A DNA stretch of 64,000 nt, from NCBI GenBank assembly GCA_934254675.1, contig CAKQLP010000002.1:15731-79730 (forward strand), read 5' to 3'. Both the position numbers and the translations under genes were made by a program. Source of the DNA: an uncultured Alphaproteobacteria bacterium (GTDB lineage: Bacteria; Pseudomonadota; Alphaproteobacteria; RF32; CAG-239). The notes under the pieces were generated by a model. The model saw only the letters and a program-made list of their open reading frames with translations, did no database searches and was not told the DNA's origin. This document shows, one piece after another, positions 26,257 through 63,127 of the stretch (position 1 is the first letter of the stretch; every line of letters starts with the position of its first letter).

Positions 26257-26403
26257 GACTGTTTTCCCCAGTGGTCGTTTTTGTTGAAAAGAATAAAATT
26301 AAAATGTTTTTGATTGTTTACAAAGCAAACAACAAGCTTGTAAATAGTCAAAACAATGCTTATCATTTTTCTGTTTAATATCTTTATCCATTGGAGAAAA
26401 CAA

Positions 26404-29400: not shown

Positions 29401-31908
29401 CTTGATAAAAAAGAATACAATGCTGGTGAAACAATAAAAATGCAAATATCCGCGCCGTATCAGGGATATGGATTAATTACAATTGAACGCGACAGTGTAT
29501 ATGCTTATAAATGGTTTAAAATGGATAGTCTGACGAAAAATGAGGAAATTGTTTTGCCGAAGGATGTTGAGATAAACGCTTATGTCAATATAGCGGTATT
29601 TCGTTCTTTGAGTTCTTCAGATATTTATCTGTCTCCGCTAAGTTATGCAACAGTTCCATTCAGTATAAATAAGGAAAATAGAAAATTGGATATAGAGTTG
29701 GAGGTTCCGCAAAAAATTAAATCAGGCGGCGATTTACAGGTAAAATATAAAACAGCACAGGATGCTAAAATAATTATTTATGGCGTAAATGAAGGTATTT
29801 TGCAGGTGAGCCGATATAATATGCCGAATTTACTGGATATTTTTATGGCCAAAAGAGCGTTGCGAGTGATTACATCACAGATTATGGATTTAGTTATGCC
29901 AGATATTCGTTTTTTCCGCAATTTAAGTTCAAGCGGTGGAGATGGCGGCGAATCTGATGATTTTTTGAATCGAAATTTAAATCCATTTGCCCGTAAAACC
30001 GATAAGCCTGTTGCTTTTTGGAGCGGAATACTTCAAAGTGACGGCAATGAAAACGTGTATTCTTATCATGTTCCTGAAACATTTAACGGAAAAATAAAAA
30101 TTATGGCTGTGGCCGTGTCTAAAGATAAATTTGGCAGCGCAGATAAATCTGTTTTGGTTCAAAGCGACTTTGCGCTTGTTCCGTCAGGTCCATACAATGT
30201 GACGCCAAGCGATGAATTTATTGTCGGTTTGAGTGTTGGAAATCTTTTGGATAATTTGGATGATAAAGTTGCTGTAAATGTGTCATCAGAAGATGATTTT
30301 GAATTTGTGGGCGACACGCAACAAATTGTGAATTTACCAGCTCAAAAAGAAACGTTTTTGAACTTTCGTTTGAAAGCCGGACCAAAATTGGGGGCAAAAA
30401 CAATTTTATTTACTGTGCAAAGTCTAAGTGATGCAAGTCGAAAGGCTGTTATGCCGTTTAATTTAAGTGTTCGTTCCGCATCGCCTTATAGCAGTAAATT
30501 TGATATGGGATTGGCTAAATCTTCATATTCTCCGAGTGATGTTGAAAATATGTATGATGAATATCGTGTACAAAAAATATCGGCGTCTTCTTCACCTTTG
30601 GTTTTTGCGCAAGGATTGTTGCAGTATCTAAATAAATATCCGCATTATTGCACCGAACAAACGGTTAGCAAAATTTTTCCGGCAATGGAATTGTTTTTTA
30701 AATCTCCGGAACTATTAAACGGAATGGACGTTTACACGTTATTTGATGATGCAATGCGTGTTTTGCGGGAACGTCAAGCCATTAATGGTGGTTTCGCTTC
30801 TTGGAATAGTGACGTTTTAGACGTTAACACAAGAGATTCTTTATATGCCTCTCATTTTTTGGTTTTAGCCAAAAAACATGGATTTAATGTTCCTGAATAT
30901 ATGCTAAATTCCGCTTTATCTTATTGTGAAAGTGTTGCCGCGCTTCAGCCGAGTGATGAAAATGATATATATCCGGCGTATGCTTCCTATATTTTAACGT
31001 TGAATGGAAACATAACAACAAATTATTTGCTGAATTTGGAAGAATTTTATAAGGCGGAATTTGCCAAAGATTGGCAAAAAAATATAAGCACTGTCTTTTT
31101 GGCGGCAAGCTATAAACTTTTGCAAGATGAAAAACATGCTTCTTTATTGTTTGGGCAATATGAAGATACTTCAAATGCAACGGCAAACGCTATGAATATT
31201 TATCTGACAGCTAAGCATTTTCCGGAAAAAATGAAAACATTGACTAAAAATAGTGTAGAGCAATTATTAAAGCCTTTGTCTGAGGGAAATTTTACGACTT
31301 ATTCTGCTGGATGGTCCGTTTTGGCATTGAATGCGTTTAACCAAATGGAAAAAGATAAAGAAATTGAATTTTCTCCATTGAAATCCAAAGCAGATCCTTT
31401 TCCGACAATGTATTACACGCCAGAAACAAAGAATATAAAAGTTTCGGCTCCGTATCCTTTTTATTATGTAAATGCGCAGCAGGGTTTTTCAAAAAATTTG
31501 AACATAAAAGCTTATTCAAATGGATTGGAAGTGAGTAAAACATATTTTGATAGAAACGGGCAAATTGCAACGCATGCTAAACTGGGTGACGTTTTAACTG
31601 TTAAAGTAAATTATCGCAGTAATGATAAAGAACCTATATTTGATGTCGCTTTTGTTGATTTGTTTGCCGGATGCTTTGAAATGGTGGATAATTCTTTGGA
31701 AACCGGAAAAGATACAACCAACTCTGAAATTAGAGAAGACAGGGTAAATGTATATGCTCCGGCATTTGTGTATGAACAATCTTTCAGTTATAAAGTTAAA
31801 GTTGTTGCGGAAGGCACGTTTATTTTACCGGCGGTTTATGCTTCAGCAATGTACCAACCTTTGGCGCGTGCAAATTCCACTATGTCTAAGATAGTTGTCG
31901 GGGAATAA
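26404..31908 (+). CDS. alpha-2-macroglobulin family protein with intact CTEQ thioester
   Basis: About 1830 aa with an N-terminal signal-anchor and MG-domain-like repeats. Thioester motif YCTEQTVSK lies near the C-terminal third. Immediately followed by pbpC. Confidence 0.85.
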   Translation: MKLKLNKRQLFYGLFITVSVIAGVLTGVYFSGEYILGKDKLEIAKIGKIDVPAPTNYGENGTVYPQPLSVTFNTSVAALDKIGQNIKNGINIQPDIRGSWQWISGDCLIFTPETDWLPNTSYKVTMSKKIFSPQIKIDSYDFRFNSPEFVGNVIASDFYEDPRELKNKSVTASFKFTYPLDIKDLKKNIQIKTVGGEDYDFDYKLEEHNTVLHIVSKPVKIKDEEDFAKINIQKLGNAYNQKLLKNTLETTVKIPSSTTFFKIKRIFSEIVRNPQKNNNPEQILTVEFTTAVNQEELAQALKLKYSKEDCSVLREKLSKNQISETEDLNLENVSQTQTDAKTQMFKYDSFENKGCLLALIDNNLTSIEGFKLGKEDSVSATAVNMAFYPLEADMAFDGAILSLQGSRKIGFISRGVKELDVDIARIKESDLNHLVTQTYGNFEKPNFEYYNFSEEDIAEIFHKKLPIISKNPAEANYSSLDLNEYLENRKGVFLLSIYGKNGQKSSYKNRRLLLMTDLGIVVKDNVDKTHDVFVSNIALEQPVVGADVQVLGKNGQPVLTAVTDKNGVAKLGDFSAFTNEKSAVVYKVIKDGDISFLPINKEDRMLNMSRFDVGGDYIDSGNDAQNSLKGYIFSDRGVYRPSETGHLGILVRQANLTIPQQLPLDLIIRKPNGEIFATQKLLSNADGFMSYDFVLPETVLTGVYSAELWLNGKDNQSMFVAYSFFRVEEFMPDTMKIKAEISQSFSQGWYNNKTLTIDADLQNLYGIPAAGHVLQTEYNLMPVDFSFESYKEYKFCNPYQENKVKTLKDTLPDVKTDSDGKAEISINLSDFTQGMYKIHVNIDGLENGGARGVGTSVSAYVSPADYLIGWKTDGKLDYIYKGAERKVDLIAVNNELQTIELKNLSLKLMKKNYVSALVEQNNGTYQYQTVSKEILVKKSPLIISALGFSQNLETSEAGDYVLLVCDNVSGKILAKIDYSVSGEMNTTQKIDKNTQLGVKLDKKEYNAGETIKMQISAPYQGYGLITIERDSVYAYKWFKMDSLTKNEEIVLPKDVEINAYVNIAVFRSLSSSDIYLSPLSYATVPFSINKENRKLDIELEVPQKIKSGGDLQVKYKTAQDAKIIIYGVNEGILQVSRYNMPNLLDIFMAKRALRVITSQIMDLVMPDIRFFRNLSSSGGDGGESDDFLNRNLNPFARKTDKPVAFWSGILQSDGNENVYSYHVPETFNGKIKIMAVAVSKDKFGSADKSVLVQSDFALVPSGPYNVTPSDEFIVGLSVGNLLDNLDDKVAVNVSSEDDFEFVGDTQQIVNLPAQKETFLNFRLKAGPKLGAKTILFTVQSLSDASRKAVMPFNLSVRSASPYSSKFDMGLAKSSYSPSDVENMYDEYRVQKISASSSPLVFAQGLLQYLNKYPHYCTEQTVSKIFPAMELFFKSPELLNGMDVYTLFDDAMRVLRERQAINGGFASWNSDVLDVNTRDSLYASHFLVLAKKHGFNVPEYMLNSALSYCESVAALQPSDENDIYPAYASYILTLNGNITTNYLLNLEEFYKAEFAKDWQKNISTVFLAASYKLLQDEKHASLLFGQYEDTSNATANAMNIYLTAKHFPEKMKTLTKNSVEQLLKPLSEGNFTTYSAGWSVLALNAFNQMEKDKEIEFSPLKSKADPFPTMYYTPETKNIKVSAPYPFYYVNAQQGFSKNLNIKAYSNGLEVSKTYFDRNGQIATHAKLGDVLTVKVNYRSNDKEPIFDVAFVDLFAGCFEMVDNSLETGKDTTNSEIREDRVNVYAPAFVYEQSFSYKVKVVAEGTFILPAVYASAMYQPLARANSTMSKIVVGE

Positions 31909-34228
31909 GTTGAGAGGATGTGTCCGCAAATTATATCAGAACGTGTTTATTCGTTTTGCTTTGCTTTTATTATTGATTACTACGGTCGTTTATATTCTTG
32001 TCCCAAAGCCGGATTTGTACAACAAATACAGTTTTTCCAGCGCTGTTTATGATACAAACGGCAAACTGCTTAAACTCTCTTTGAGCAACGATGATAAATA
32101 TCGATTGTTTGTTTCTTTGCAAAATGTTCCAATTGAAGCCCGTCAGGCTTTGTTATTATACGAAGATCAATATTTTTATTATCATATCGGAGTTAATCCG
32201 TTTAGTCTATTTCGGGCAATTTTAGCAATGTCAAGCGGAGGAAGACGCCAAGGCGCGTCAACAATAACCATGCAAGTGGCGCGCATTGTGTTTCAGATAA
32301 ATTCAACCTCTTTTTTAGGAAAAATAGAGCAAATATTCCGTGCACTGCAAATTGAATTATTTTATAGCAAAAATGAAATTCTTGAAGCTTATTTTAATTT
32401 GGCGCCCTATGGTGGAAATATTGAAGGCATCGGGGCGGCGGCGTTAATCTATTTTCAACAAAACGCTGATAAACTTAATTTACCACAGATTTTGGCATTG
32501 ACAGTAATACCTCAAAATCCATCTAAACGTTCTTTGCTGACAGAGATTAATCGTAAACAGAATAGTGTTGCGTATCAAAGAATAAAAAATATATGGCTTG
32601 AAAAATATCAACATTCCCAAAATGAATATTTAAATCTTCCTTTGTCATCATCAGTATATTTGCCAGATAACGCATCGCATTTTACTCGAAGAATGTTTGC
32701 CGCTTATCAGGGTGAAATAAAGACGACATTAAATCTGAATTATCAAAAAGATTTGGAAGACATTATTCGCCGATATGTGGCTGAACAACGGCAAAAAGGT
32801 GTGTTCAATGCATCAGCCCTATTGTTAGATAGTCAAGACATGTCTGTTTTGGCTTATGTCGGTTCAGCAGATTTTTATAATAAAAACATTTCAGGACAAG
32901 TTGATGGTATAGTTGCCCGCCGTTCTCCCGGTTCAACGCTAAAACCCTTTGTTTATGCCTTAGCTTTGGAGCAGGGATTGATACATCCTTTGAGTATGCT
33001 TAAAGATGTTCCCAGCCGATATGGATTTTATTCTCCGGAAAATTTTGACCATACTTATTATGGTCTTTTAAATGCAACGAGAGCTTTGACATTAAGCAGA
33101 AATATTCCGGCGGTGGAACTTTTAATGCAAGTTGGTGAGAAAAATTTTTATGAATTGTTAAAAAAATGTGGGGTTAACTTGCCCAAAAAAGCGGATTATT
33201 ATGGTTTAGCGATGGCATTGGGCGGTGTCGAGGTGTCCATGGAAAATTTAGCCTCAATGTATGCTATGCTTGCCAATAATGGAAAATTTTCAAACATTGT
33301 TTTTCTAAAAAGCGAAAGTGCGGATTTTCAGCAATTGTTATTGCCTGAAGCGGCTTTTCTAACACGTTACATGTTGTTTCAAAATGAAAGCATAGATAAA
33401 AATTTGTCAAAGTCCATTAAAAGAAAAGCTATTTCCGCCGCATGGAAAACCGGAACTTCGTTTAGTTATAAAGATGCTTGGACAGCAGGAATTTTTGGAA
33501 AATATGTGTTAGTTGTGTGGCTTGGTAATTTTAATGGAAAATCCAATTCTGCTTTTGTGGGTAGAAAACTGGCTGCGCCTTTATTCTTTAGGATAGCCAG
33601 AAGATTTATGGATAAGAATTTATTGTCGTCTTATAAAGACGAAACAGAATATTTAAATTTGGCTAAAGTTAAAGTTTGTCAGGATACGGGAGATTTAGCT
33701 ACGGAATTTTGCTATAAAACAGTTGAAACCTATTTTATTCCCGGGGTGACTTCAATTAAAAATTCAAATATTACCCGTTTGATTCCTATTGATAAAAAAA
33801 GCGGGTTGAGAGCTTGCCGACACACTCCGCCGCAAACGGAACTCAAAAGCTATAATTTTTGGCCGTCAGAGATATTGTCTGCATATCAAAAAGCTGGAAT
33901 AAATTTGCAAAAACCGCCGGCGTTTAAAGAAAATTGTCAAAATGTGGAAGATTTTGTTCAAGGAACACCTCCAAAAATATTGAGACCATATAATGGAGAA
34001 AAAATTTTACTCAGTTCTTTGCAAGGCGGAAAAATTTTGGCTGAGGCGACTGTTGACGCGGATACTAATGAAGTTTACTGGTTTATAAATAACCGGTTAT
34101 GCGGAGTTTCTAAAGCTAATGAAATTTATGAAATAACTCCTCCTCAATATGGTCGCTTAGAAGTTAAAGCCGTAGATGGCTTGGGGCGGCAGACAGCTGT
34201 TTCAATACAGATACAGTCATTAAATTAA
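31895..34228 (+). CDS. pbpC: penicillin-binding protein 1C (bifunctional transglycosylase/transpeptidase)
   Basis: GT51 motifs (EDQYFYYHIGVNP, RQGASTITMQ). Transpeptidase motifs STLKPF (SxxK), SRN and KTGTS. Overlaps the a2m stop by 14 nt. Confidence 0.85.
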   Translation: MSGNKLRGCVRKLYQNVFIRFALLLLLITTVVYILVPKPDLYNKYSFSSAVYDTNGKLLKLSLSNDDKYRLFVSLQNVPIEARQALLLYEDQYFYYHIGVNPFSLFRAILAMSSGGRRQGASTITMQVARIVFQINSTSFLGKIEQIFRALQIELFYSKNEILEAYFNLAPYGGNIEGIGAAALIYFQQNADKLNLPQILALTVIPQNPSKRSLLTEINRKQNSVAYQRIKNIWLEKYQHSQNEYLNLPLSSSVYLPDNASHFTRRMFAAYQGEIKTTLNLNYQKDLEDIIRRYVAEQRQKGVFNASALLLDSQDMSVLAYVGSADFYNKNISGQVDGIVARRSPGSTLKPFVYALALEQGLIHPLSMLKDVPSRYGFYSPENFDHTYYGLLNATRALTLSRNIPAVELLMQVGEKNFYELLKKCGVNLPKKADYYGLAMALGGVEVSMENLASMYAMLANNGKFSNIVFLKSESADFQQLLLPEAAFLTRYMLFQNESIDKNLSKSIKRKAISAAWKTGTSFSYKDAWTAGIFGKYVLVVWLGNFNGKSNSAFVGRKLAAPLFFRIARRFMDKNLLSSYKDETEYLNLAKVKVCQDTGDLATEFCYKTVETYFIPGVTSIKNSNITRLIPIDKKSGLRACRHTPPQTELKSYNFWPSEILSAYQKAGINLQKPPAFKENCQNVEDFVQGTPPKILRPYNGEKILLSSLQGGKILAEATVDADTNEVYWFINNRLCGVSKANEIYEITPPQYGRLEVKAVDGLGRQTAVSIQIQSLN

Positions 34229-40687: not shown

Positions 40688-41482
40688 TCAGTAAAACTTC
40701 CATAAAATGGAGTTTGCGTTTGCTGTTGAACTACAAGCTTTTGCCGCTTCAGCAACATTCATTGGCGTTTTTTGGGTAGTACCATTAACACATGCCGCCA
40801 TTGGTGTTGCTGTAGGTGTTGCTGTAGGTGTTGCAGGTGCAGGTGTTTCAGGTGTATTTAATTCCATATTGGCAGAGGCGAGTGCCGTGCCGTTTCCGCC
40901 AATGTTGTTTGATGCTGAACTAGCAGTAACTGAACCACCTGAGCAAGTTATTGATTGAACACCTGCAGAATCAGCGGTTTGTTCCGCACCAGAAGCTACA
41001 ATGCCGACTAAACCGGAAGAATAGCCGGAACCCCAATCATTGGTCGCCAAGGTCACGCAGGCTTCTTTCGGCAAGCCATTCATGATAACAAAAAATCCTC
41101 TGTTAGTCCCACTATCTGATCCGGCATCCATTCCGGTAACTGTGCCGGCACCGATAACAACCGAACCCAAGAAAGCGTTTTGAAGTTTTTTTCCTGTGGT
41201 TGAATTTGTACTATCCGCAATTTGCAGTTCATCCGGCACCACACCCATATGAATAGCCGAATCATTATCCAACCCGCTGTAATTTTGTTGTTGCGCGTAC
41301 AAAGTTCTGATGTTGGTCACAATCATGGCGACGTTGTCCGCAACTTTGTTTGTTTTAAATTTAGTCATGGCTTTTGAATAGCCGGCAATACCGCCAACGC
41401 TCAAAACGCCGATAATGGCCAGTACGCCCAACATTTCAATCATTGAACGGCCTGACTGTTCTTCATATTTATAATTATTCAT
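40688..41482 (-). CDS. type IV pilin-like protein (prepilin N-terminal domain), Thr/Pro-repeat containing
   Basis: Class III signal (..EEQSG|RSMIEMLGVLAIIGVLSVGGIAGY) with Glu at +5 and a hydrophobic alpha1 helix. C-terminal (ATPT)n repeats. The paralog at 47285 shares its first ~60 aa. Confidence 0.7.
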   Translation of the reverse strand: MNNYKYEEQSGRSMIEMLGVLAIIGVLSVGGIAGYSKAMTKFKTNKVADNVAMIVTNIRTLYAQQQNYSGLDNDSAIHMGVVPDELQIADSTNSTTGKKLQNAFLGSVVIGAGTVTGMDAGSDSGTNRGFFVIMNGLPKEACVTLATNDWGSGYSSGLVGIVASGAEQTADSAGVQSITCSGGSVTASSASNNIGGNGTALASANMELNTPETPAPATPTATPTATPMAACVNGTTQKTPMNVAEAAKACSSTANANSILWKFY

Positions 41483-41753
41483 TGTTTTCTCTTCCATAAT
41501 TCTTGTTAACACAAAAAAAGCCACCGATAAGGCAGCTGGAAGTTGGAAACTACTGATCAAAAAATAGTGTAGCATGTTAGCTATGTACATAGCCTATTTT
41601 GCTACCTTCCAGCCATATGACCAGAAGGCACGCACAAAATTTACGCCCTTGTACAAAGACGTTTGACCAAAGAGGTTTCCACACCCCAGACAGACTATCA
41701 TCCATCCATCTATCACTCTAACAAAGATGTTTGATAATGTAAAGAATATTTTT

Positions 41754-47175: not shown

Positions 47176-47284
47176 ACTATAACTAAAGTCATATAACTAT
47201 TAGAATATTGTTTTAAATATTAAAATGTGTTTTAATAATAATATAATGTGCAAATTAACATTATATTATTTAAGGAGAAAAACA

Positions 47285-47917
47285 ATGAATATGATGAAAA
47301 CAAATGAAACCGGTCGTTCCATGATTGAAATGCTCGGTGTTTTGGCGATTATCGGTGTGCTGTCCGTTGGTGGTATTGCCGGCTATTCCAAAGCTATGAA
47401 CAAATTTAAAACAAACAAGGTTGCAGATAATGTGTCTATGATTGTGACCAACATCAGAACCTTGTACGCGCAACAAAATAATTATGCGGGTTTAAATAAT
47501 ATAACAGCTATTCAAATGGGCGTTGTTCCAGATGAATTGGGTACAGACACTACTTCAGGTACTTTAACAAATGCCTTTTTAGGTGGTGTTAATATTGGCA
47601 CAGCAACAGTTACCAGTTTGGATGCTGGTACATCTGGCGCCAATAGAGGATTCTTTTTAACCATGAACGGTTTGACTAAAGAAGCGTGCGTGACCTTGGC
47701 CGCCAATGACTGGGGTTCCGGTTATTCCGCCGGTTATGTGGGAATGACTGTTTCTGGCTCGGCTCAAACTAGTTATAACACGTCATTTGCTGTAAATTGC
47801 ACGGATCGTGGAGCAGCTAAATGGTGTGCAAGCCAAGGACCGATGCAGGTTTCTCAAGCGGCCACTGGTTGTTCTGCCACTGGAAACACAAATTCGATTA
47901 CTTGGGTATTCTACTGA
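47285..47917 (+). CDS. type IV pilin-like protein, paralog of 40688..41482
   Basis: AAGGAG RBS. Signal ..NETG|RSMIEMLGVLAIIGVLSVGGIAGYSKAM. C-terminus NSITWVFY versus NSILWKFY in the paralog. Confidence 0.7.
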   Translation: MNMMKTNETGRSMIEMLGVLAIIGVLSVGGIAGYSKAMNKFKTNKVADNVSMIVTNIRTLYAQQNNYAGLNNITAIQMGVVPDELGTDTTSGTLTNAFLGGVNIGTATVTSLDAGTSGANRGFFLTMNGLTKEACVTLAANDWGSGYSAGYVGMTVSGSAQTSYNTSFAVNCTDRGAAKWCASQGPMQVSQAATGCSATGNTNSITWVFY

Positions 47918-52128: not shown

Positions 52129-52282
52129 ATTTAAAAAAACGCCTGATTCGGGCGTTTTTTTGTGCAAAAAATAAAATTGTAAAAAAAATTGCCAAAATTA
52201 AACAAAAAACTTGACAATAAAATAAATTGAGATAATATGAAACTGTTTCTTGTATTATTTAACTATATTTAAATTTATTGTT

Positions 52283-52696
52283 ATGAAAAGGTTTTTTTCT
52301 TTCGTTGTGATTTTTTGTCTCAGCGTTGTCTTGTTTTCATCTTGTGGTGGAAGCAAAAAGGACGGCAGTGAAGGGTACACTCAAAAGGAACTCTTCCACA
52401 GCAGTGAACGTTACGATGCTTTAAAGTATCTCAACCGTCTTAACTGGTGTAAGGCCGGTCCTGACGGAAAGGTCTTTTTAGGCTCGGTTGACAATGGTAT
52501 TGATATAACCGATTTGCGGTATGTCAATGCCCCCGAAGTAGTACCAACCTCTACTGATCAGGTTGTGGTTTGGAAACACGGCAAGCAGTTTCTTCTTGTT
52601 AAATGTGATGAGAACGTGCCTGTGATGTCTCGTGTTCGCGTGGCTCAGGATTGGTGCCGAGATAACTTTGGCGATGAACCGCAAACCCTTGAATAG
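52283..52696 (+). CDS. hypothetical lipoprotein (137 aa)
   Basis: Signal peptide with lipobox FSSC. Terminator hairpin AGAGAAAGT-ctatgaa-CTTTCTCT plus T-run at 52716-52745. Confidence 0.4.
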   Translation: MKRFFSFVVIFCLSVVLFSSCGGSKKDGSEGYTQKELFHSSERYDALKYLNRLNWCKAGPDGKVFLGSVDNGIDITDLRYVNAPEVVPTSTDQVVVWKHGKQFLLVKCDENVPVMSRVRVAQDWCRDNFGDEPQTLE

Positions 52697-53299: not shown

Positions 53300-53653
53300 A
53301 TGGAAAAATTACCGCATTTACATCATCATAATAAGGAAACGCATATTTTAGAAATTCCGTTGGAAAAAGCGTTTTTGCGTACGGCGGAAACATTTCAGCT
53401 TATTTCCGATGCGACCAGATTGAAAATTTTGTGGTTGCTGTGTCATAATGAAGTTTGTGTGAATAATATTGCCGTATTGGTTAAAATGAGCTCTCCGGCC
53501 GTATCCCATCATTTGCGTTTGTTAAAACAGGCTGGTTTGATTGAAAGTCGCCGCGAAGGTAAAGAAATGTATTATAAATTGGCGGAGACATCGGAAGCCG
53601 CATTGTTACACCGCGCTTTGGATGATATTTTGGACATCAAATGCCCATTATAA
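53300..53653 (+). CDS. ArsR/SmtB-family metalloregulatory transcriptional repressor
   Basis: wHTH core LKILWLLCHNEVCVNNIAVLVKMSSPAVSHHLRLLKQAGLIESRREG. His-rich N-terminus (LPHLHHHNKETH) and Cys pair CHNEVC near the alpha3 position. Confidence 0.75.
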   Translation: MEKLPHLHHHNKETHILEIPLEKAFLRTAETFQLISDATRLKILWLLCHNEVCVNNIAVLVKMSSPAVSHHLRLLKQAGLIESRREGKEMYYKLAETSEAALLHRALDDILDIKCPL

Positions 53654-53679
53654 AAACAATTAAAAGGGGAATGTCAGAT

Positions 53680-54123
53680 ATGAAAAAAGTGTTGTTAATT
53701 TTATTGTCATTTTTGTATGTTAGTAAGGTGGCGTTAGCGGAAGAATTAAATATTAATGAATATAAGCAAGTATTGACACAATGTTATAATAATTTTGAAC
53801 ATAATGAAAAGCGTTGTTCAGATTGGAATTCAAGATGTTTCAATCATCTTCAGGCGGAGCAAGAAAAACTGCAGAAATGTTATCAGAAAGTTGCTGTTAG
53901 TATTTTTACGGAATTTTATGATTTATCAAATGAAGATGCTCTGCAAAAATTTGATAATTATAAAAATTTTTTACAGATTGAGTATAAGTTTATTTATAGT
54001 GATTCAATTTATTGTAAGAAAAATAATTGTGGCATAGCACCAAATTTATATAGTGAATATGCCACAAGCCAAGGTTTATATAATTATATTAATAAAACAA
54101 TAAATTATATTGAAAATCAATAA
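53680..54123 (+). CDS. small secreted Cys-containing protein, paralog A of tandem family
   Basis: Signal peptide MKKVLLILLSFLYVSKVALAEE, nearly identical to paralog B. Shares a ..YC..N.CGI.P.. C-terminal motif with paralog C. Confidence 0.5.
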   Translation: MKKVLLILLSFLYVSKVALAEELNINEYKQVLTQCYNNFEHNEKRCSDWNSRCFNHLQAEQEKLQKCYQKVAVSIFTEFYDLSNEDALQKFDNYKNFLQIEYKFIYSDSIYCKKNNCGIAPNLYSEYATSQGLYNYINKTINYIENQ

Positions 54124-54145
54124 GTATTGCTTCTTCTTATTCAGT

Positions 54146-54227
54146 CTTATGCCGAGGAGGGGAAAGTTTTGTCAGACATACTGGAACATCTGATTTATAT
54201 GAATAATGTAAAAGACGGATACTAATC
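54146..54227 (+). repeat. 82-bp perfect copy of the 3' end of paralog C (56395..56476), out of frame downstream of paralog A
   Basis: CTTATGCCGAGGAGGGGAAAGTTTTGTCAGACATACTGGAACATCTGATTTATATGAATAATGTAAAAGACGGATACTAA occurs identically at both places. Confidence 0.7.
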
Positions 54228-54842
54228 AGAGATTTTTAATCCAACGCATTTTTCAAAGTCATCAATGGTATTTTGATGAAAATATTTTTCAGAATAAACA
54301 TTACCTGTTAGGCAATGTAATTTATCATTATTCTCTAATAAGCAATTCATTTTAGATGAATATTGTGAACTGCGTGAATCCTTAACTAGACAAGAACATT
54401 TTTCGCATTCATTTACATCTACGGTTTTATAATATGTTCCACATAATTCAGTACGATATTCATTATTTTTATAATGGCTTAAAAGATATTCTTCATCTTT
54501 ATGTGTATAACATTTTATATTATTTAAACTTTCGCCATCTATATTTTCACAGAAAAAACTTAAAATTTCTGTTTGTTTAGTTTGATTATTAGTAATTGTT
54601 CCAGAACAGCCAGCTGTTCCGCAATCATCTTCGGAATGCAAAGGACTAAGCCTCCAGAAAACATCTACCGATAAAGAATATTGTTTATAAATTCCTGTAT
54701 ATTCGCTTTCTAATTCTGAATTATTTTGACTTAAAATACTAGCTTGTTTCAGAATAAATGGACCACAAGGCCAATCTTGCGGCAAAGCATAAGCCTTACC
54801 GCAAAATATAACCGCAAATAAAATAATCAGACTATTTTTCAA
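54222..54842 (-). CDS. secreted Cys-rich protein (206 aa, 17 Cys)
   Basis: Signal peptide MKNSLIILFAVIFCGKAYA. Many Cys pairs (C..C, CEKCSC). No recognised domain. Confidence 0.45.
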   Translation of the reverse strand: MKNSLIILFAVIFCGKAYALPQDWPCGPFILKQASILSQNNSELESEYTGIYKQYSLSVDVFWRLSPLHSEDDCGTAGCSGTITNNQTKQTEILSFFCENIDGESLNNIKCYTHKDEEYLLSHYKNNEYRTELCGTYYKTVDVNECEKCSCLVKDSRSSQYSSKMNCLLENNDKLHCLTGNVYSEKYFHQNTIDDFEKCVGLKISD

Positions 54843-54929
54843 ATAATGTACTCTGTTTAGATTTATATTAAAATAAAAATATAATGAATTAGAAAAGAAA
54901 ACAAGGAATTTTTAGAGAGGCAAAATAAA

Positions 54930-54989
54930 CCTCTTGACTTTGTTTATATTAAAATTATTATAAAAACAATTAAAAGGGGAATATCAGAT
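54930..54989 (+). promoter_or_regulatory. conserved promoter/leader module of the tandem secreted-protein family (copy 1)
   Basis: CCTCTTGACTTTGTTTATATTAAAATTATTATAAAAACAATTAAAAGGGGAAT contains TTGACT-N17-ATTATA and a GGGGAA RBS. Near-identical copy at 55680..55741, partial copy at 53645..53679. Confidence 0.5.
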
Positions 54990-55442
54990 ATGAAAAAGGT
55001 GTTGTTGTTTTTATTGTCATTTTTGTATGTTAGTAAAGTGGCGTTAGCGGAAGAAATAGAGAAAACTAAGTTTGATAGTGTAGAGAAACAAATGGATAAA
55101 TATAAAAATGAATGCTTTAATAAATATGCTTTTCCCAAAGGAATTGATAATTATAGTATGTATAATGATGATATCAAAAACGGAGATTTTAGATATCATC
55201 AATGTTTAAAAAATGTTATTATTAGAAAAATAAAAGAAATATCATCTGCTGACGATGCGAAACTAATGATAGAAGATTTGAACAAAATACAAGATTCTTT
55301 TAGTGGCTTTTATTGGACATTGTACAATAGAAAAGATACGGGAGTATTTGGTAGAGGAATAAACGATGCCGTTCTAGGACGTCGTTTTGAGGACATCCTA
55401 GAAGACATTTTGTACTATCAATCTACATATAATATTGATTAA
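54990..55442 (+). CDS. small secreted protein, paralog B of tandem family
   Basis: Signal peptide MKKVLLFLLSFLYVSKVALAEE. 150 aa. Confidence 0.5.
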   Translation: MKKVLLFLLSFLYVSKVALAEEIEKTKFDSVEKQMDKYKNECFNKYAFPKGIDNYSMYNDDIKNGDFRYHQCLKNVIIRKIKEISSADDAKLMIEDLNKIQDSFSGFYWTLYNRKDTGVFGRGINDAVLGRRFEDILEDILYYQSTYNID

Positions 55443-55679
55443 GGATAATTTTTTAATAATTCTTGTGCTTTTTTACATTCATCTAAAAATCGTTGTTTTA
55501 TAGAATCTTGTACTTCAGGTGTGCTTTTACTGAAATATCTTTTGACATTGTATCGTTCGTTATAGATGAGGTTAATAATATCCTTATTGCTAAGAAGAGA
55601 AGCTCAAACCGCAGAAGATGGAAATACGGCATTAGAAAATAATGCAGAATCGGCTGAGTAATAAAGCTTTTTTGTGTTA

Positions 55680-55741
55680 AACCTCTTGACTTTATTTATA
55701 TTAAAATTATTATAAAAACAATTAAAAGGGGAATATTGGGT
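55680..55741 (+). promoter_or_regulatory. conserved promoter/leader module (copy 2)
   Basis: AACCTCTTGACTTTATTTATATTAAAATTATTATAAAAACAATTAAAAGGGGAATATTGGGT. Confidence 0.5.
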
Positions 55742-56476
55742 ATGAAAAAGGTGTTGTTGATTTTTTTATTGCTGTGTGGTAATAATGCTTGGGCTGATGT
55801 TTGCTATGATATTGGCGAACAGACGGCTGAGAAGGCTTTTAAGCTTATTCAACAGCAAAAAGAAATATATGAGTATTGTTCTCTTTGTGATAATGCCAAA
55901 CCAATTATTATTCCTGTTCAAAATGTAGTTAAAGGAAGTCCTATATCAGTTAATAATAAGAAACTTGATTTAGTTCATACTTATTACAAAAATAAAGGTA
56001 AATTTATAAATTTAGGAGTTGCATCAGGCTGTATTAAAGCCGGAGAATATAATATTGCAACAGAGCTGGCAGACTTGCCGGTTAAGCAGCCTACTGAAAT
56101 AGATTATCGTCAAATAAGTCGGCAGCAAATGAAAGATATTTTTGATAAATGCAGTAACTCAGCAAAAAGTGAAAAATCTACAATATCAGAAATAGAAAAA
56201 CAAAATAAGCAAATAAATAATTGTTTGATTGAAGTTATCAAAACAGAAATTAAAAAGGGATTTGACAATAACCAGCAAGCTCAAATGTTTAGTTATTTGG
56301 AGCAAGTTCATAAGTCTGTATTTAATTTCTATTACGGAATAGCAGCCGAGAGCAAATATTGCAGTGGGGAATGCGGAATAATGCCAAGTATTCAGCCTTA
56401 TGCCGAGGAGGGGAAAGTTTTGTCAGACATACTGGAACATCTGATTTATATGAATAATGTAAAAGACGGATACTAA
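55742..56476 (+). CDS. secreted Cys-containing protein, paralog C of tandem family (244 aa)
   Basis: Signal peptide MKKVLLIFLLLCGNNAWA. C-terminus ..KYCSGECGIMPSIQPYAEEGKVLSDILEHLIYMNNVKDGY, whose coding sequence is duplicated at 54146..54227. Confidence 0.5.
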   Translation: MKKVLLIFLLLCGNNAWADVCYDIGEQTAEKAFKLIQQQKEIYEYCSLCDNAKPIIIPVQNVVKGSPISVNNKKLDLVHTYYKNKGKFINLGVASGCIKAGEYNIATELADLPVKQPTEIDYRQISRQQMKDIFDKCSNSAKSEKSTISEIEKQNKQINNCLIEVIKTEIKKGFDNNQQAQMFSYLEQVHKSVFNFYYGIAAESKYCSGECGIMPSIQPYAEEGKVLSDILEHLIYMNNVKDGY

Positions 56477-56502
56477 TATAAAATTAATATCCGTCTTAAT
56501 AT

Positions 56503-57651
56503 TTATTTTATTCTAAACCGTTCAAATCTATTAGGTAATCCATGACTATATTCTTTATAGTTGGAGTTGCTGTTTGTTTCAATTTGATGTTCAAAATCAG
56601 CTTTTCTGAAATCAACAATTGCATTGTTGACACGTATAATTTCTTCAGGTGTCAAATTATTTAAAGCTCTTATTGTCTGAGAACCAAAGATACCATCTTC
56701 ATCAACTTGCATATTTGTTTGTTGGTTAATGGCTCTCTGAGCCCATTGAGCAGGAGCAGTTGGACTATGATTAAAAAATGAATCAAACATTATTTCTTGT
56801 AGTGTTGGAGCTATAATTTCTCCAATGCGATATTTATCAAAATAATCCAATCTAGCGATTTGCTTAACTTGGTCTCGTGTTATATCTTTAATATTATCAG
56901 GGTATTGCTCAGCTAATTCAGGATGTGCAATTTTAAATCTCTCCAAGGAACTTTGCTGAATCCCCATATTAGTAGGAGTATCAATACGATTATTCCTATC
57001 TTCATATCCACCTTCTTCTTCTAAGCTTTTATTTATAACTCTATTAAAAATAGCTGCTTTATTGTTTTCATTCGTAGTTTGATGATGTGAAACATTATTA
57101 AGTGTGGGTACTGGAGTTTTTATGTCATATTCAGAAATAGTACAAGTAGTTTTAGGTCTATTCCAAGAAAAAGTAGTTTGATTTTGCATTTTATTTGCTT
57201 CAGTGTTCCACGGAGTTGGTGTTTGGTTTAATGAAGTGTTGTTATTTTGTGTCAAGATATTATTTGACTGTCCAAAAGCCGTATTTTGCTGCTGGTTTGT
57301 CTGCGGAACCGGGGCTATTGTGCCAGAGTTCTGATACAGTCCATAGTTCTGATTTTTAAGCGAATTGGTGACGTTTTCAATATTATCACTGATGTTGGAG
57401 GAGCCGAAACCATAGTTATTAGCCGGATTGCCGCCCCAAAAGTTGTTGCTGTACTGCGGATAGTCTTGCGTTATGCCTTGATTGTTGTAGTTTTTTATCA
57501 GTTCATTTTCCCGATTAGTTCTCGCCATTTGATAAGATATTTCATCGCGTAATGAAAAATTTCTGTGGTCAACGCCGTAAGAATCTATTTTGTTTTCACC
57601 ATTTTCATAGCCTAATTGAGATTTAAAATTTCTGTACATATTTTTCTCCAA
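56503..57651 (-). CDS. GH108-like N-acetylmuramidase domain protein with PG-binding-like C-terminus and long N/Q-rich N-terminal region
   Basis: The ..LEEEGGYEDRNNRIDTPTNMGI.. segment matches the EGGY....D.GG.T..GI signature of GH108. The C-terminal ..VDEDGIFGSQTIRALNN.. resembles the PG_binding_3 module. Residues ~60-200 are low-complexity, N/Q/T/S-rich. No signal peptide. Confidence 0.5.
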   Translation of the reverse strand: MEKNMYRNFKSQLGYENGENKIDSYGVDHRNFSLRDEISYQMARTNRENELIKNYNNQGITQDYPQYSNNFWGGNPANNYGFGSSNISDNIENVTNSLKNQNYGLYQNSGTIAPVPQTNQQQNTAFGQSNNILTQNNNTSLNQTPTPWNTEANKMQNQTTFSWNRPKTTCTISEYDIKTPVPTLNNVSHHQTTNENNKAAIFNRVINKSLEEEGGYEDRNNRIDTPTNMGIQQSSLERFKIAHPELAEQYPDNIKDITRDQVKQIARLDYFDKYRIGEIIAPTLQEIMFDSFFNHSPTAPAQWAQRAINQQTNMQVDEDGIFGSQTIRALNNLTPEEIIRVNNAIVDFRKADFEHQIETNSNSNYKEYSHGLPNRFERFRIK

Positions 57652-57872
57652 ATTTTATTGTTTTTAGCTTATTAAATAATTTATTTCTTATTATATACGC
57701 GCGCAAAATTAAACCGCAAAGCCTTAATCAGCTGCAATCATAAAACAAGATAAATTATTTTAATGTGGTATTATTATCATAAATATCTTTTAAAGTCAAG
57801 TTTAAAATAAGAAAAATATAAAATATTCTAATTATGTAAAATAAATATATTATTCTATAGGTGGAAACATAA

Positions 57873-60058: not shown

Positions 60059-63000
60059 TTAAAAATTATATTTTAAATTAACATATCCTGTATGACTGAT
60101 AAAATCTTTCCTAAATTTCCCTTCATATCCAATATCACTTTCAATGTTATCAGATAAGTTAAAAGAGGTCTTTACTCCTGCTTCCAGTCCAAATTGTTTT
60201 AAGTTTTTTCCTTCTATAAAATAAGTTGAACCATTAGACAGAGATACAAAAGAATTTTCTTTATCAGTTACAATATCATATGTTGCGGTTAAATGAATTT
60301 CCGGACGCCAGTAAAGTACACTTTTTTCAAAACAGTTATAGATGTTCTTGCTTAATTTTATTCCTCCTAAAGCCGTTAAATAATTTAAATTATCCGATGA
60401 TACTTTCTGACCAATTTGATCTGTGTAACTATTTCTGCGAACATTATTATAGCGTAGTCCTGTTTCCGGGGTAATCTTAAAATCATAAATGTACGCATCA
60501 TATCCAGTTATGGCGTTAGCAGCAAGATTTTTTACATTATACTTAGCTGTATAATGGTTGTTTATAATAAATTTTTTTTCATTATAGTCAGACCAGTTAT
60601 ATATTGTCGCAAGATGCGCAAACCAATTATTTGGTTTATATTCTCCGTAAACAAAAGCCGTATTCGTATCAACATCAGCTTTTCTTTCATACGCATTTAT
60701 TTTGTCTGTTGTAAAAGCATAACCTATGCCGCTTTTTATTGTGTCGGTCAACTTTTTTTCTGCTCCGAGCATTATTCCAGAACTTTTAATATTAAAGCCG
60801 TAAATTTTGCCCATATCGTTTATTTTGGAATAGTTACCCAAAATTTGAACGAATACGGAGCCGTCATTAAATATATTATCTCCAGATGATAATCCATATT
60901 TACGATTTTTCGAAGAACTGTGAAGCCGATTTTCGATATTGTCAAAAATCTGATTATTTTTCAATAACATCATAGATTGTAAAACCGGACTGTCATTTGG
61001 AGCTAAGGACGTTAAGGCTTTATTCAGTTGAGACGCGTTATTTTGTGCTAAATCCGCTAAATTGTCAGCCAGTTGTTTCTGAATTCCGTCAGAAAATCTG
61101 TTATCGTCTATCCAAGCTTTTGCGGTGTTTTCATTGTTTGTTGTTCCGCCATTTTCGCGACTAACATCGCTTGCTTTTCGTTTAAGGCTGACAATGTAAT
61201 CTCCGGCAGTTGAACTTTTTTCAAAATGATACATATTGTTATCATAAACAGATGATAAATTGTCAACAAACGGATTTGCGCTGGAAAAAACGGAAATCGT
61301 TTTTTGGTTATTTGATATATCAACTAAGCCTTGAGCCAGTGTTAAATTTAATGTTCCACCATTTAAAACCAGCTTGTCAGCATATAAAGAACCATTTTTA
61401 TCCGTATTTACGGTTATATTTAGCATAGAGCCTTTGTTAAATTCCGCCTGCTTTAGAGTTATATGCTGTGTATCGATGTCTAAAATACCGCCATTAGCCT
61501 GAAATGTTTCAACAGATTTGAGTTCATCTCCGTTTTTAAGCTTTAGAACTCCGTTTTGCAAAGCAACGTTGTTTGCTGTAACATCAGCATTGAAGGATAT
61601 ATTTTTAGTCCCATTCAAAAAAATTGTACCATTTCCTGTTATTGCGGAATCAAAGATTATATTATGGTTTTCCGCATTTAATGTTAGAATGCCGTTATTG
61701 ATAATTGCGGCACCGTTAAAACCATAAAAAGATGTATCCGTGACAAACATTTCTTGTGTCGGTGATAAGGAGATTCCCTTGAAATTATTTCCATTGACAG
61801 ATTTTCCGCTACTACCGATAACCAATTCTGTTCCGGTTAATGCTCCTAAGTCACCGGAAAGAATTTCATCTTTTCCCATAACAAAGGATTTTTGTGCATT
61901 GGTGAAATGAACAGCCGTTTCAAGAGTGTTATCTTTGCCGAATTTTATTTTGTTTGCAACTGTGTCCACCATATATAGATAAGAATGATGCACATTTTCG
62001 CCGACAGTAATATCTAGAATATTGTTTAGTTTTATCAAATTGTTTTTAGTATCAATGGAAATTTCTGTAATGTTTTGGTCTGCATCATTCAAGATATTTA
62101 ACTTTTTTAGTTCTAAATAATTAGTGTTTGTTGTAGCGTTTGCCGTAAAAGAATCTAAAGTTTTCTGTTGCAAATCAATGTCAAGACCGATAGAGGCATT
62201 GTTGTGCAAGATTATGTCACTTAAATCTGTGTTTTTGATATTGTTATCACTTAAATCAATAAATCCGCCATAAATGTTAAATTTTGTTCCGGAAACAAGA
62301 GAGCCATAATAATCAAGGTTGTTTTGAGTGTTGTGTCCAAATTTTAATGTGCCATTGTATAAATTTAGTTCGTTTACGCCGATGGCGTTATTAAATTCCA
62401 CAACACCGTTTGTGGGAGCAATATCTGAATTATCTTGGGCAACACTGATATCTATATTATCTTTGTTTATATTTATGATTGAATCTGATTGAGATAAAGC
62501 ATCTTTTATTCCTTCAATGCCGTCATTAAAAGTGATATTTTTTTCACCGGCATTTAAATTGATTGTTCCGCCGGTGGTTTTTATGGCGTTTGATTTGCCA
62601 TTTGCAATATTACCGGTGAATTCTGTGGCTGAATCTTTTGCATAAATATTTATATTGCCTCCCCAATTGTAGATGGCTCCACCTTCTGTTGTCGCCGAAT
62701 TATTTAAAAAAGAGCCGCTGAGGCGATTTAGATTGCCCATATAATTTGTAATAACACCGCCTTGGCCTGAGGTGGTGTTATTAAAACTTTTGAAATTAGT
62801 GTTTGTGATATATAAATTTTGCGTTACACCCATACCTGAAATAATCAGTCCTTGATTAGTGTTGTTACCAACAACGGTATAATTATTTCCCTGAATAGAT
62901 AAAGATTGTCCATTAAGCGGGTTCAAATTTCCAGATAAATTTTCATCGCTTGTAAGTTCATAGGTTTTATCTGTTGATTGATTATCATCAACGGCTTTGG

Positions 63001-63127
63001 CTAAAGAACTGTAAGCGTGAGCAGACGCCGATATTGTTATAAAAGCAATGTTAATAATTGCGCACTTTTTTAAAACGGAAATATATTGTTTTTTTAATAA
63101 ACCCAGAGCTTTTCTAGTGTACCGCAT
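60059..63127 (-). CDS. autotransporter (type Va) outer-membrane protein with beta-helical passenger
   Basis: Signal peptide. Passenger rich in N/G/T repeats (..NGG.LN.., ..G.LN.N..). C-terminal ~280 aa beta-barrel ending ..VNLKYNF (terminal aromatic). Confidence 0.75.
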   Translation of the reverse strand: MRYTRKALGLLKKQYISVLKKCAIINIAFITISASAHAYSSLAKAVDDNQSTDKTYELTSDENLSGNLNPLNGQSLSIQGNNYTVVGNNTNQGLIISGMGVTQNLYITNTNFKSFNNTTSGQGGVITNYMGNLNRLSGSFLNNSATTEGGAIYNWGGNINIYAKDSATEFTGNIANGKSNAIKTTGGTINLNAGEKNITFNDGIEGIKDALSQSDSIININKDNIDISVAQDNSDIAPTNGVVEFNNAIGVNELNLYNGTLKFGHNTQNNLDYYGSLVSGTKFNIYGGFIDLSDNNIKNTDLSDIILHNNASIGLDIDLQQKTLDSFTANATTNTNYLELKKLNILNDADQNITEISIDTKNNLIKLNNILDITVGENVHHSYLYMVDTVANKIKFGKDNTLETAVHFTNAQKSFVMGKDEILSGDLGALTGTELVIGSSGKSVNGNNFKGISLSPTQEMFVTDTSFYGFNGAAIINNGILTLNAENHNIIFDSAITGNGTIFLNGTKNISFNADVTANNVALQNGVLKLKNGDELKSVETFQANGGILDIDTQHITLKQAEFNKGSMLNITVNTDKNGSLYADKLVLNGGTLNLTLAQGLVDISNNQKTISVFSSANPFVDNLSSVYDNNMYHFEKSSTAGDYIVSLKRKASDVSRENGGTTNNENTAKAWIDDNRFSDGIQKQLADNLADLAQNNASQLNKALTSLAPNDSPVLQSMMLLKNNQIFDNIENRLHSSSKNRKYGLSSGDNIFNDGSVFVQILGNYSKINDMGKIYGFNIKSSGIMLGAEKKLTDTIKSGIGYAFTTDKINAYERKADVDTNTAFVYGEYKPNNWFAHLATIYNWSDYNEKKFIINNHYTAKYNVKNLAANAITGYDAYIYDFKITPETGLRYNNVRRNSYTDQIGQKVSSDNLNYLTALGGIKLSKNIYNCFEKSVLYWRPEIHLTATYDIVTDKENSFVSLSNGSTYFIEGKNLKQFGLEAGVKTSFNLSDNIESDIGYEGKFRKDFISHTGYVNLKYNF

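Follow-up and report, generated by a model that had tools for sequence, protein, structure and literature searches.

Organization of the island

The window analysed here is a whole stretch of 64,000 nucleotides (nt) from an uncultured human-gut Alphaproteobacteria bacterium, and the element in question is an 89-nt block at positions 54138-54226, referred to below as the stub, which repeats the 3' end of a nearby gene. The stub lies in a 4.2 kb island (53647-57848) with a G+C content of 29.7%, compared to 37-39% in the flanks, located between the gene of an arsR-family regulator and an HMA/P-type ATPase gene pair. A toxin gene occupies the right end of the island on the minus strand, and leftward of it are found gene C (plus strand), gene B (plus), a gene for a protein of 206 amino acids (aa; minus) and gene A (plus). 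No recombinase gene was present in or beside the island, the neighbours being arsR, HMA and P-type ATPase. The window was compared to related metagenome contigs (L001-L030), most of which are short and some of which may mix strains. The genes and remnants involved are listed below; asterisks in translations denote stop codons, and CTD denotes a C-terminal domain.

53680..54123, plus strand: paralog A, 147 aa, complete, with a signal peptide (cleavage between ...ALA and EE); the exact protein occurs on 9 contigs
54117..54148, minus strand: 3' relic of an A-type toxin gene, last ~9 codons (...IRRSNTY*), by its match to L012
54138..54226, plus strand: stub of the 3' end of a C-type gene, last 29 codons and stop, IQ[S/P]YAEEGKVLSDILEHLIYMNNVKDGY*; exact from 54146
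54222..54842, minus strand: gene of a 206-aa Cys-rich signal-peptide protein, an orphan in the window
54990..55442, plus strand: paralog B, a 150-aa signal-peptide protein, an orphan in the window
55439..55603, minus strand: B-type toxin relic, last 54 codons and stop, from a VgrG3-like CTD; 99.4% identical to the intact gene in L019
55596..55661, plus strand: rpoC 3' relic, last 21 codons, 66 nt (REAQTAEDGNTALENNAESAE*), by sequence match
55742..56476, plus strand: paralog C, 244 aa, with a signal peptide (cleavage between AWA and D), an alpha/beta domain at the N-terminus and a four-helix, four-Cys bundle at the C-terminus
56503..57639, minus strand: toxin, 378 aa, composed of an N-terminal domain of ~100 aa, a linker rich in N/Q and a C-type CTD (GH108 + PG_binding_3)

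The stub and its recurrence in other assemblies

The two copies of the C 3' end are identical over 81 nt (54146-54226 and 56397-56477); when extended, from 54138 and 56389 onward, they agree at 88 of 89 positions, the sole mismatch being at 54145. In 100 dinucleotide-preserving shuffles of the window no match of such length was obtained. The initial annotation had reported a perfect 82-bp copy (54146-54227 and 56395-56476); the repeat itself is confirmed, while its coordinates have to be shifted by 1-2 nt. The accompanying proposal that the block is the end of paralog C including the stop codon was borne out, as it encodes the last 29 residues of C followed by the stop. The copy had also been described as out of frame with respect to A, and this is incorrect: the stub is read in the frame of A (54139 is in frame with 53680-54123), and in this shared frame only the TAA of A (54121-54123) and five codons (VLLLL) stand between them. 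Translation from inside A through the stub thus yields ...INYIENQ*VLLLLIQSYAEEGKVLSDILEHLIYMNNVKDGY*.

The possibility that the repeat is an assembly artefact, namely a collapsed or mis-joined repeat, has in its favour the metagenome-type assembly and the fact that four short contigs (L004, L005, L008 and L009) end inside the repeat or just past it. The A-stub-206-B order, however, recurs with 99-100% identity in at least four other samples (L006/L010/L016, L007/L017, L011 and L018), on contigs that include lengths of 68 kb and 322 kb and were built by different assemblers, and each copy has unique, consistent sequence on either side. An A-stub-206 arrangement is also found in L015, at a different chromosomal site. 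Since the order is recovered in independent assemblies from different samples, an artefact is ruled out for practical purposes, and we assign it a next to negligible probability. A ubiquitous dispersed repeat, the other circumstance in which the annotation would have failed, is likewise ruled out: there are two copies in the window, and elsewhere the sequence is confined to the same type of locus. A conserved 44-nt core was found in 2 of ~185,000 species-representative genomes, both of them metagenome-assembled genomes of uncultured human-gut Alphaproteobacteria, in 2 JGI metagenome contigs and in 0 viral contigs, and all of these occurrences were inside the same locus type.

What the stub retains of a C-type gene is its 3' end, a dead remnant covering residues 216-244 of C, which make up most of the last helix (residues 210-243 in the AlphaFold model of C). 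As it comprises most of one helix only and does not include the invariant cysteines (C207 and C211 lie upstream), it cannot be functional by itself. Stubs also decay: non-synonymous changes were observed (Q-S in the window, L in L018), and the stubs of L013, L022 and L030 contain an in-frame TAG.

Two junctions of the stub

On its right side, the stub passes unbroken into the 206-aa gene, the stop of which overlaps the stub end by 4-5 nt. Full-length C genes overlap the 206-aa gene in an identical manner in L001-L005, L008, L009, L015 and L029, of which L001-L003 represent a different species with ~81-85% DNA identity. This shared overlap identifies the stub and the 206-aa gene as a piece of a C-206 module.

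On its left side, the 14 nt that follow the stop of A, together with the first 11 nt of the block, constitute the 3' end of the toxin partner of A. The window tracks L012 from A up to position 54148, and the minus-strand translation of the relic, *D*IRRSNTY*, can be compared to IFEKGWIRRSNTY* in L012, where the gene ends in ...EKGWIRRSNTY*. The junction between the two parental sequences is an 11-nt microhomology, TATYCAGCCTT (54138-54148), which is common to both; in C it forms part of the codons S-I-Q-P-Y, and on the opposite strand it encodes K-G-W-I of the toxin. In L019, A is followed neither by the stub nor by the body of the 206-aa gene, and derivation of this arrangement from a window-type junction or from an L012-type junction is ambiguous.

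The same left boundary (TATYCAG) is encountered in a second, unrelated context. In five contigs (L013, L014, L022, L029 and L030) the island starts with the stub, 7 nt past the terminator of a HAD-like housekeeping gene. Either the microhomology was used twice or one of the junctions may have descended from the other. An initial interpretation of the flank on the HAD side as a toxin relic ('GWIRC*') was dropped, because the GWI codons belong to the microhomology and an ending of this type is not seen in any family member.

The recurring boundary could also be taken to indicate that the 89-nt block is a recombination site or a cassette end, for instance an attC-like target of a site-specific recombinase, the fixed left boundary then marking the point of enzymatic cutting. 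The repeated intergenic modules of the island would agree with this, as such modules are present in recombinase-associated immunity islands of Bacteroidales (bioRxiv 10.1101/471110). The island, however, contains no recombinase, and the block has no inverted-repeat structure; no significant RNA structure was detected in the stub on either strand (z scores of +1.1 and -0.2). On these two counts it differs from an integron attC site, and attC-like and terminator roles were both discarded. The block is, moreover, ordinary C-family coding sequence, with conservation at the protein level down to 48% identity; other junctions in the array are at unrelated sequences, and the boundary on the A side coincides with the 11-nt match to the K-G-W-I codons of the toxin. 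The missing recombinase, the missing structure and the unrelated sequences at the other junctions make a site-specific element improbable.

The toxin is polymorphic

The resident toxin has no signal peptide, as judged by inspection. Its CTD matches PF05838 (GH108) with 42.6 bits, above the cut-off of 21.2, and PF09374 (PG_binding_3) with 20.5 bits, which is under the cut-off of 24.6. When its first 100 residues were used in an exhaustive HMMER search, the proteins returned formed 222 clusters at 50% identity, in which this domain is always located at the extreme N-terminus and the host proteins are mostly 250-430 aa long. Proteins that are 94-99% identical to the window in the N-terminal domain are split into different 50% clusters, the remainder of their sequence being different. 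Among 70 representatives, the CTDs included 12 GH108, 3 VgrG3-like muramidase, 3 Tlde1, 2 YkuD and 2 SLT domains, as well as one each of Pesticin, GH46, phage lysozyme and PBECR2 nuclease domain. At the DNA level, L012 (a 363-aa toxin) and L015 (391 aa) share 97-98% identity with the window over the N-terminal part, and in both the CTD has been replaced. The toxin is, therefore, polymorphic, with a constant N-terminus and an exchangeable cell-wall-targeting CTD.

The N-terminal domain had no match to a Pfam or NCBIfam family, and its AlphaFold model (pLDDT 74) matched no structure in the PDB or BFVD. The domain (57340-57639, minus strand; family proteins P0075-P0213) displays a nearly invariant motif, D19-x-Y-G-V-D-H25; any likeness of D-x-Y-G-V-D-H to a TonB box is speculation. 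In three members of the family the CTD matches Pfam SAA (serum amyloid A), with E=1.8e-17.

Partner genes of the toxin domains

Each of the genes preceding the toxin could be paired with a toxin domain on one or another contig. In L012, a protein identical to A overlaps, tail-to-tail, a 363-aa toxin with a GH108 + PG_binding_3 CTD. In L019, an identical B overlaps by 4 nt, also tail-to-tail, a toxin with a VgrG3-like muramidase CTD (Pfam T6SS_VgrG3-like_C, E=3e-33); in L018, B abuts a minus-strand open reading frame (ORF), the first 99 nt of which match the 3' end of an L019-type toxin before the contig ends. C faces the CTD of the window's own toxin, and in L024 a C homologue with 48% identity adjoins a toxin that is split and has a CTD 66% identical to it; C is presumed from this arrangement to be the cognate partner of the resident CTD. 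A homologue of the 206-aa protein (a 218-aa protein in L001, 82% aa identity) is the second gene of a toxin operon with an unclassified CTD in L001-L003. This CTD had been considered 'SLT-like' by eye, a label dropped for lack of Pfam or PDB support. Finally, gene D (161 aa) faces a third, D-type, GH108 domain in L004 and L015. The contigs thus provide five pairings of a toxin domain with a partner (A, B, C, D and the 206-aa protein), all of them genomic associations only.

The pairing appears to be determined by the C-terminal part of the partner. The most telling case is that of proteins P0015-P0019 (L026-L028, 5001-6808), the most distant of the C homologues: they are chimeras, with the N-terminal domain of the C type and the C-terminal one of the A type, and the toxin opposite them has a GH108 CTD that is likewise of the A type. 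This match indicates that the C-terminal domain of the partner co-varies with the toxin CTD, and that the C-terminal bundle is the specificity module. In C, the alignment and the model show four invariant cysteines in the C-terminal four-helix bundle. Signal peptides were recognized by inspection in A, B, C and the 206-aa protein. Taken together, the co-variation with the CTDs, the signal peptides and the cell-wall targets make a periplasmic immunity protein the natural reading, and A, B, C and the 206-aa protein would accordingly neutralise their partner CTDs in the periplasm.

A is read as an orphan immunity-type gene, the cognate A-type GH108 CTD being absent from the locus of this genome. 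The earlier suggestion that A is a truncated derivative which lost its C-terminal module does not hold: the protein has the same length of 147 aa beside its own toxin in L012, and its end aligns to that of the A-type homologues P0015-P0019. These data also bear on the possibility that the stub is used as an in-frame tail, with read-through of the TAA, or a switch of TAA to a sense codon, extending A by the last helix of a C-type protein. The shared frame with a single TAA in between and the existence of natural chimeras of the P0015-P0019 kind speak for such a use. A, however, already possesses a homologous last helix and ends where its homologues end, so that a read-through fusion would duplicate this helix rather than restore it; in addition, stubs gather non-synonymous changes and in-frame TAG codons, and a match in frame is expected by chance in one case out of three. 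We consider a functional tail, and with it a functional swapping of 3' modules at the locus, very improbable.

Two other proposals concerning the partners were abandoned. A, B and C were considered lysozyme inhibitors of the LprI/DUF1311 type, for which there was no Pfam match, no PDB sequence match and, in Foldseek, only hits to generic helical bundles. C was considered a lipoprotein because of its 'LLLCG' sequence; the Cys is not conserved in the homologues, and the AxA/D cleavage site is.

Additional partner-like genes were seen on the contigs. In L029 (island orientation), genes of 114-120-aa membrane proteins (8606-8950 and 10751-11113, minus strand) lie on the same strand as, and directly downstream of, a 376-aa toxin variant, and a similar membrane-protein gene is an orphan beside A in L012 (4-366, minus strand). 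These proteins are probably another immunity type, for a different CTD. In L024/L025 (1113-6626), the 48% C homologue stands beside a toxin split into ORFs of 171 aa and 128 aa; the same island also holds a phage-type integrase and an AbiE toxin-antitoxin pair, and nearby are OmpH genes and a giant ORF of ~4000 aa.

Additional scars in the array

The array of the window contains three orphans (A, the 206-aa gene and B) and the toxin and C-type relics at 54117-54148, 54138-54226 and 55439-55603. The last of these, the 165-nt B-type toxin relic, translates to ASLLSNKDIINLIYNERYNVKRYFSKSTPEVQDSIKQRFLDECKKAQELLKNYP*, and it meets the rpoC relic at an 8-nt microhomology, AGAGAAGC (55596-55603). In L015, an island is located between the true 3' end of rpoC and rimP-nusA. 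The rpoC relic, together with this position, shows that the window's module of C plus toxin domain was copied from an rpoC-side island into the arsR-side one. More generally, the islands occupy different sites (between arsR and HMA in the window, between rpoC and rimP in L015, between HAD and rimP in L029), and the joining of the rpoC and toxin relics shows that modules are transferred from one island copy to another across such chromosomal sites.

Deletions have also occurred in the arrays of other genomes. A 7-nt sequence, ATTTTTA, at 54908-54914 repeats that at 54233-54239, and in other genomes the 206-aa gene has been deleted between these repeats, leaving an 'empty' junction of stub, TCAGAGATTTTTA, GAGAGGC and promoter. 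In L015, B is a pseudogene (3130-3165) with a frame-breaking deletion of 215 nt at a TGGA microhomology, and the copy of the 206-aa gene beside the stub is reduced to 40 nt.

L018 carries arsR-A-stub-206-B followed by the 99-nt match to the 3' end of the B-type toxin gene, where the contig ends at a point corresponding to window position 55538. This fits the state expected before the arrival of C; the contig ends inside the toxin match, ahead of any C position.

Age of the junction and the role of gene conversion

The junction between A and the stub is common to strains that differ by 0.5-1% (L011 and L018), and it is also present in the L015 copy, at another chromosomal site and 3% different. 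It consequently predates the divergence of these strains and loci. In contrast, the initial annotation had concluded from the perfect identity that the exchange was very recent. This was too strong: the stub differs from the C gene of the same genome at 1 of 89 positions in the window and at 6 of 89 in L015, two copies of the 3' module in L004 (one truncated where the contig begins) show 2 differences in 81 positions, and stubs of different strains differ from one another at 2-4 of 89. Allelic variation is wide enough to include stub-C differences of 0-6 per 89 nt, so that the near-identity in the window does not by itself date any event.

The substitutions are, nonetheless, unevenly distributed, a sign of exchange among the repeated copies. 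Over 2539 nt the window and L018 differ at 24 positions; 8 of these belong to the 5' module and 4 to the stub (for the latter, p=0.009). In the L029-L030 pair, 4 of 550 positions differ through the HAD-like gene and 6 of 89 in the stub (p=0.0008); the L029 stub has the haplotype of a functional C, and that of L030 is a degenerate haplotype with TAG, common to more distant lineages. At the strain-variable sites 54141, 54143 and 54210, the window stub agrees with the C gene of the window itself. A likely cause is occasional conversion, with full-length C as the donor and stubs as recipients; it acts on the relic and does not account for its origin, and we infer that it has kept the stub of the window nearly identical to C.

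A different scenario is that the copy itself was made recently in this genome, by conversion or by a short duplication from the resident C. The single difference in 89 positions and the three shared variable sites are what this scenario would predict, and so is the clustering in the stub of differences between close strains, which probably reflects conversion of an existing stub. Conversion, however, needs prior homology, and the 3' end of A and its flank have none to C. The stub, furthermore, runs into the 206-aa gene, exactly as full-length C does elsewhere, which speaks against a copy made from the resident C. The same junction is found in L018, where the contig breaks off before any C, and in L015, where the stub is 6/89 away from its own C; its presence in both indicates that the copy is older than the C of this genome. 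An origin by conversion or duplication is therefore quite improbable. Of the two processes that the annotation had offered, gene conversion or cassette recombination, the second is supported in the form of module exchange, and the first is retained as secondary homogenisation only.

A model of serial displacement

The stub is most probably a scar left when toxin and immunity genes were serially displaced through homology-facilitated illegitimate recombination. According to this model, an incoming module of CTD and immunity gene would enter by one crossover in the conserved N-terminal region of the toxin gene or in the 5' module, its other end being joined illegitimately at a short microhomology. 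Older immunity genes would be pushed away from the toxin and retained, and pieces of displaced genes would stay behind as scars. In the case of the stub, a segment reaching from 89 nt before the end of C into the 206-aa gene would have been joined to the 3' end of A's former toxin gene, the product consisting of A, ~9 codons of its old toxin, the C stub and the 206-aa gene. B would have been added later, and then C with the present toxin domain, this last module being a copy from the rpoC-side island. The arrays may then be reshuffled as their conserved parts undergo ordinary homologous recombination. The tail-to-tail layout implies that the unit of exchange is the immunity C-terminal domain together with the toxin CTD, which would also explain the chimeric proteins.

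Directly observed are the anatomy of the island, its junctions, the polymorphism of the toxin family and, in other genomes, an intact counterpart of each relic. The order of events and the recombination mechanism, on the other hand, we infer from comparison of the contigs, and several points weigh against the model. The same left boundary of the stub is found by the HAD-like gene in five contigs, a recurrence that purely random illegitimate joining would not predict. The 206-aa homologue is on the same strand as its toxin, in an operon, and does not face it. Searches of Pfam, NCBIfam and PADLOC assigned no family to A, B, C or the 206-aa protein, and the model of C gave only generic helical-bundle matches in Foldseek and no known immunity fold. 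The N-terminal domain, with neither a family nor a fold match, gives no pointer to a delivery route of the toxin. The order of events, moreover, was rebuilt from few metagenome contigs, most of them short and some perhaps mixing strains.

A more far-reaching, and rather doubtful, possibility is that the 5' module and the C-type 3' end are selected recombination handles which, along with the toxin N-terminus, form a cassette-shuffling system, the toxin family being a new class of bacteriocins or effectors that target the cell wall, belong to uncultured human-gut Alphaproteobacteria and have an undescribed delivery route.

Comparison with known systems

In the T6SS (type VI secretion system) arrays of Vibrio cholerae, an incoming module replaces the toxin domain and the old immunity genes are kept farther out (Kirchberger et al. 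2017, PMC5361080). The model put forward for them, which the anatomy of the island fits, combines homology-facilitated illegitimate and ordinary homologous recombination, involves no integrase and leaves the 3' ends of displaced effectors in place (PMC5361080). The island resembles these arrays in having one toxin with a constant 5' part, retained immunity-type genes and effector 3' relics. It differs from them in that no T6SS genes flank the locus, the immunity-type genes are mostly tail-to-tail and have their own promoter/signal-peptide modules, a relic of an immunity-type gene is present as well, and modules have moved among the arsR, rpoC/rimP and HAD sites. Linkage to T6SS genes (vgrG, hcp, PAAR or adaptor) was absent among the neighbours, which are arsR, HMA and P-type ATPase here and rpoC, rimP, tig and mscL elsewhere, and a Pfam search of the toxin revealed no MIX, FIX or PAAR-type T6SS targeting domain.

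Rhs and contact-dependent inhibition (CDI) loci, for which PMC5361080 cites Jackson 2009, Poole 2011 and Koskiniemi 2014, combine a conserved N-terminal part with variable C-terminal toxins, orphan modules and fragments downstream, and short recombination anchors. The constant N-terminus, the variable C-terminal toxin domains, the orphans and the short recombination anchors are shared with the present locus. Unlike Rhs and CDI proteins, however, its toxins are small (250-430 aa) and have no Pfam hits to Rhs/YD repeats, two-partner secretion (TPS) domains or PAAR; its orphans are mostly immunity-type genes, and no toxin-domain stump is longer than 54 codons.

Toxins of the colicin M and pesticin type have a periplasmic immunity protein, and for most cmi genes the immunity gene is downstream on the opposite strand (PMC5821083, PMC3390615). 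Common to these and to the island are a toxin that is small and modular, partly disordered in its N-terminal region, equipped with a C-terminal cell-wall domain and devoid of a signal peptide, and an opposite-strand immunity gene; one family member matches Pfam Pesticin. When colicin-like features were sought, the opposite-strand immunity gene and the disordered N/Q-rich linker fitted, and a TonB/Tol box, a receptor domain, a lysis gene and an SOS box were not identified. The acquired interbacterial defence (AID) islands of gut Bacteroidales of the rAID-1 type are orphan immunity arrays with a conserved XerD-family recombinase and no resident toxin (bioRxiv 10.1101/471110). They and the present locus have in common human-gut hosts, orphan immunity arrays, a skewed GC content and repetitive intergenic sequences, but here the array is attached to its toxin and there is no recombinase.

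With a constant N-terminus and variable CTDs, co-varying neighbours, orphans and relics, the locus operates in the manner of polymorphic toxin loci that carry an orphan-immunity array, and a scar of this kind is already well known. Ordinary in itself, the scar stands with the other relics within 4 kb and has intact versions elsewhere, which makes the history of the locus readable junction by junction, microhomologies included. This offers unusually direct support for homology-facilitated illegitimate recombination as a route by which orphan-immunity arrays grow. The analysis also reveals that uncultured human-gut Alphaproteobacteria have small polymorphic peptidoglycan-hydrolase toxins forming a family so far without annotation, along with several periplasmic partner families that are likewise unannotated; these may shape strain competition in the human gut.

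The 5' modules, terminator and neighbouring genes

The remaining features of the island are the following (RBS, ribosome-binding site).

53647..53679, plus strand: truncated 5' module ahead of A, with an RBS and part of a -10 box, without a -35 box; homology starts at 53647
54908..54989, plus strand: full 5' module ahead of B, with a promoter-like TTGACT-16-TATTAT (54934-54961) and an RBS, extending into the signal-peptide codons
55678..55741, plus strand: full 5' module ahead of C, with TTGACT-16-TATTAT at 55686-55713
56463..56497, both strands: strong bidirectional terminator hairpin between C and the toxin gene (z of -4.6 on the plus and -6.8 on the minus strand)
57640..57848, minus strand: region upstream of the toxin gene at the right end of the island; homology to other islands stops at 57814-57848

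The modules ahead of B and C are nearly identical in their promoter-like TTGACT-16-TATTAT, RBS and first signal-peptide codons. As the module of A has no -35 box, A may be transcribed by read-through from arsR (53300-53653), the last two codons and stop of which are supplied by this truncated module. The left arm of the terminator hairpin is formed by the last 11-15 nt of C and the right arm by an inverted copy just downstream; the right arm is missing from the stub copy, and the hairpin occurs only at the C/toxin junction and not at C/206 junctions.

Several genes outside the island were also noted in the window. A gene for a bacterial alpha-2-macroglobulin (1850 aa) precedes one for a PBP1C-type transglycosylase/transpeptidase (777 aa; 26356-34228 for both), which is the usual pairing of the two. 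Two bundlin/PilS-type (type IVb) pilin genes are located at 40688-41590 (minus strand) and 47225-47917 (plus strand), and a 1022-aa autotransporter with a Chlamydia-PMP-type repeat is encoded at 60059-63127 (minus strand). To the left of tRNA-Thr and arsR there is a gene for a 148-aa lipoprotein (52250-52696); a homologue with 38% identity stands beside the toxin island of L001 (10866-11342), and the two may be a remnant of shared synteny.

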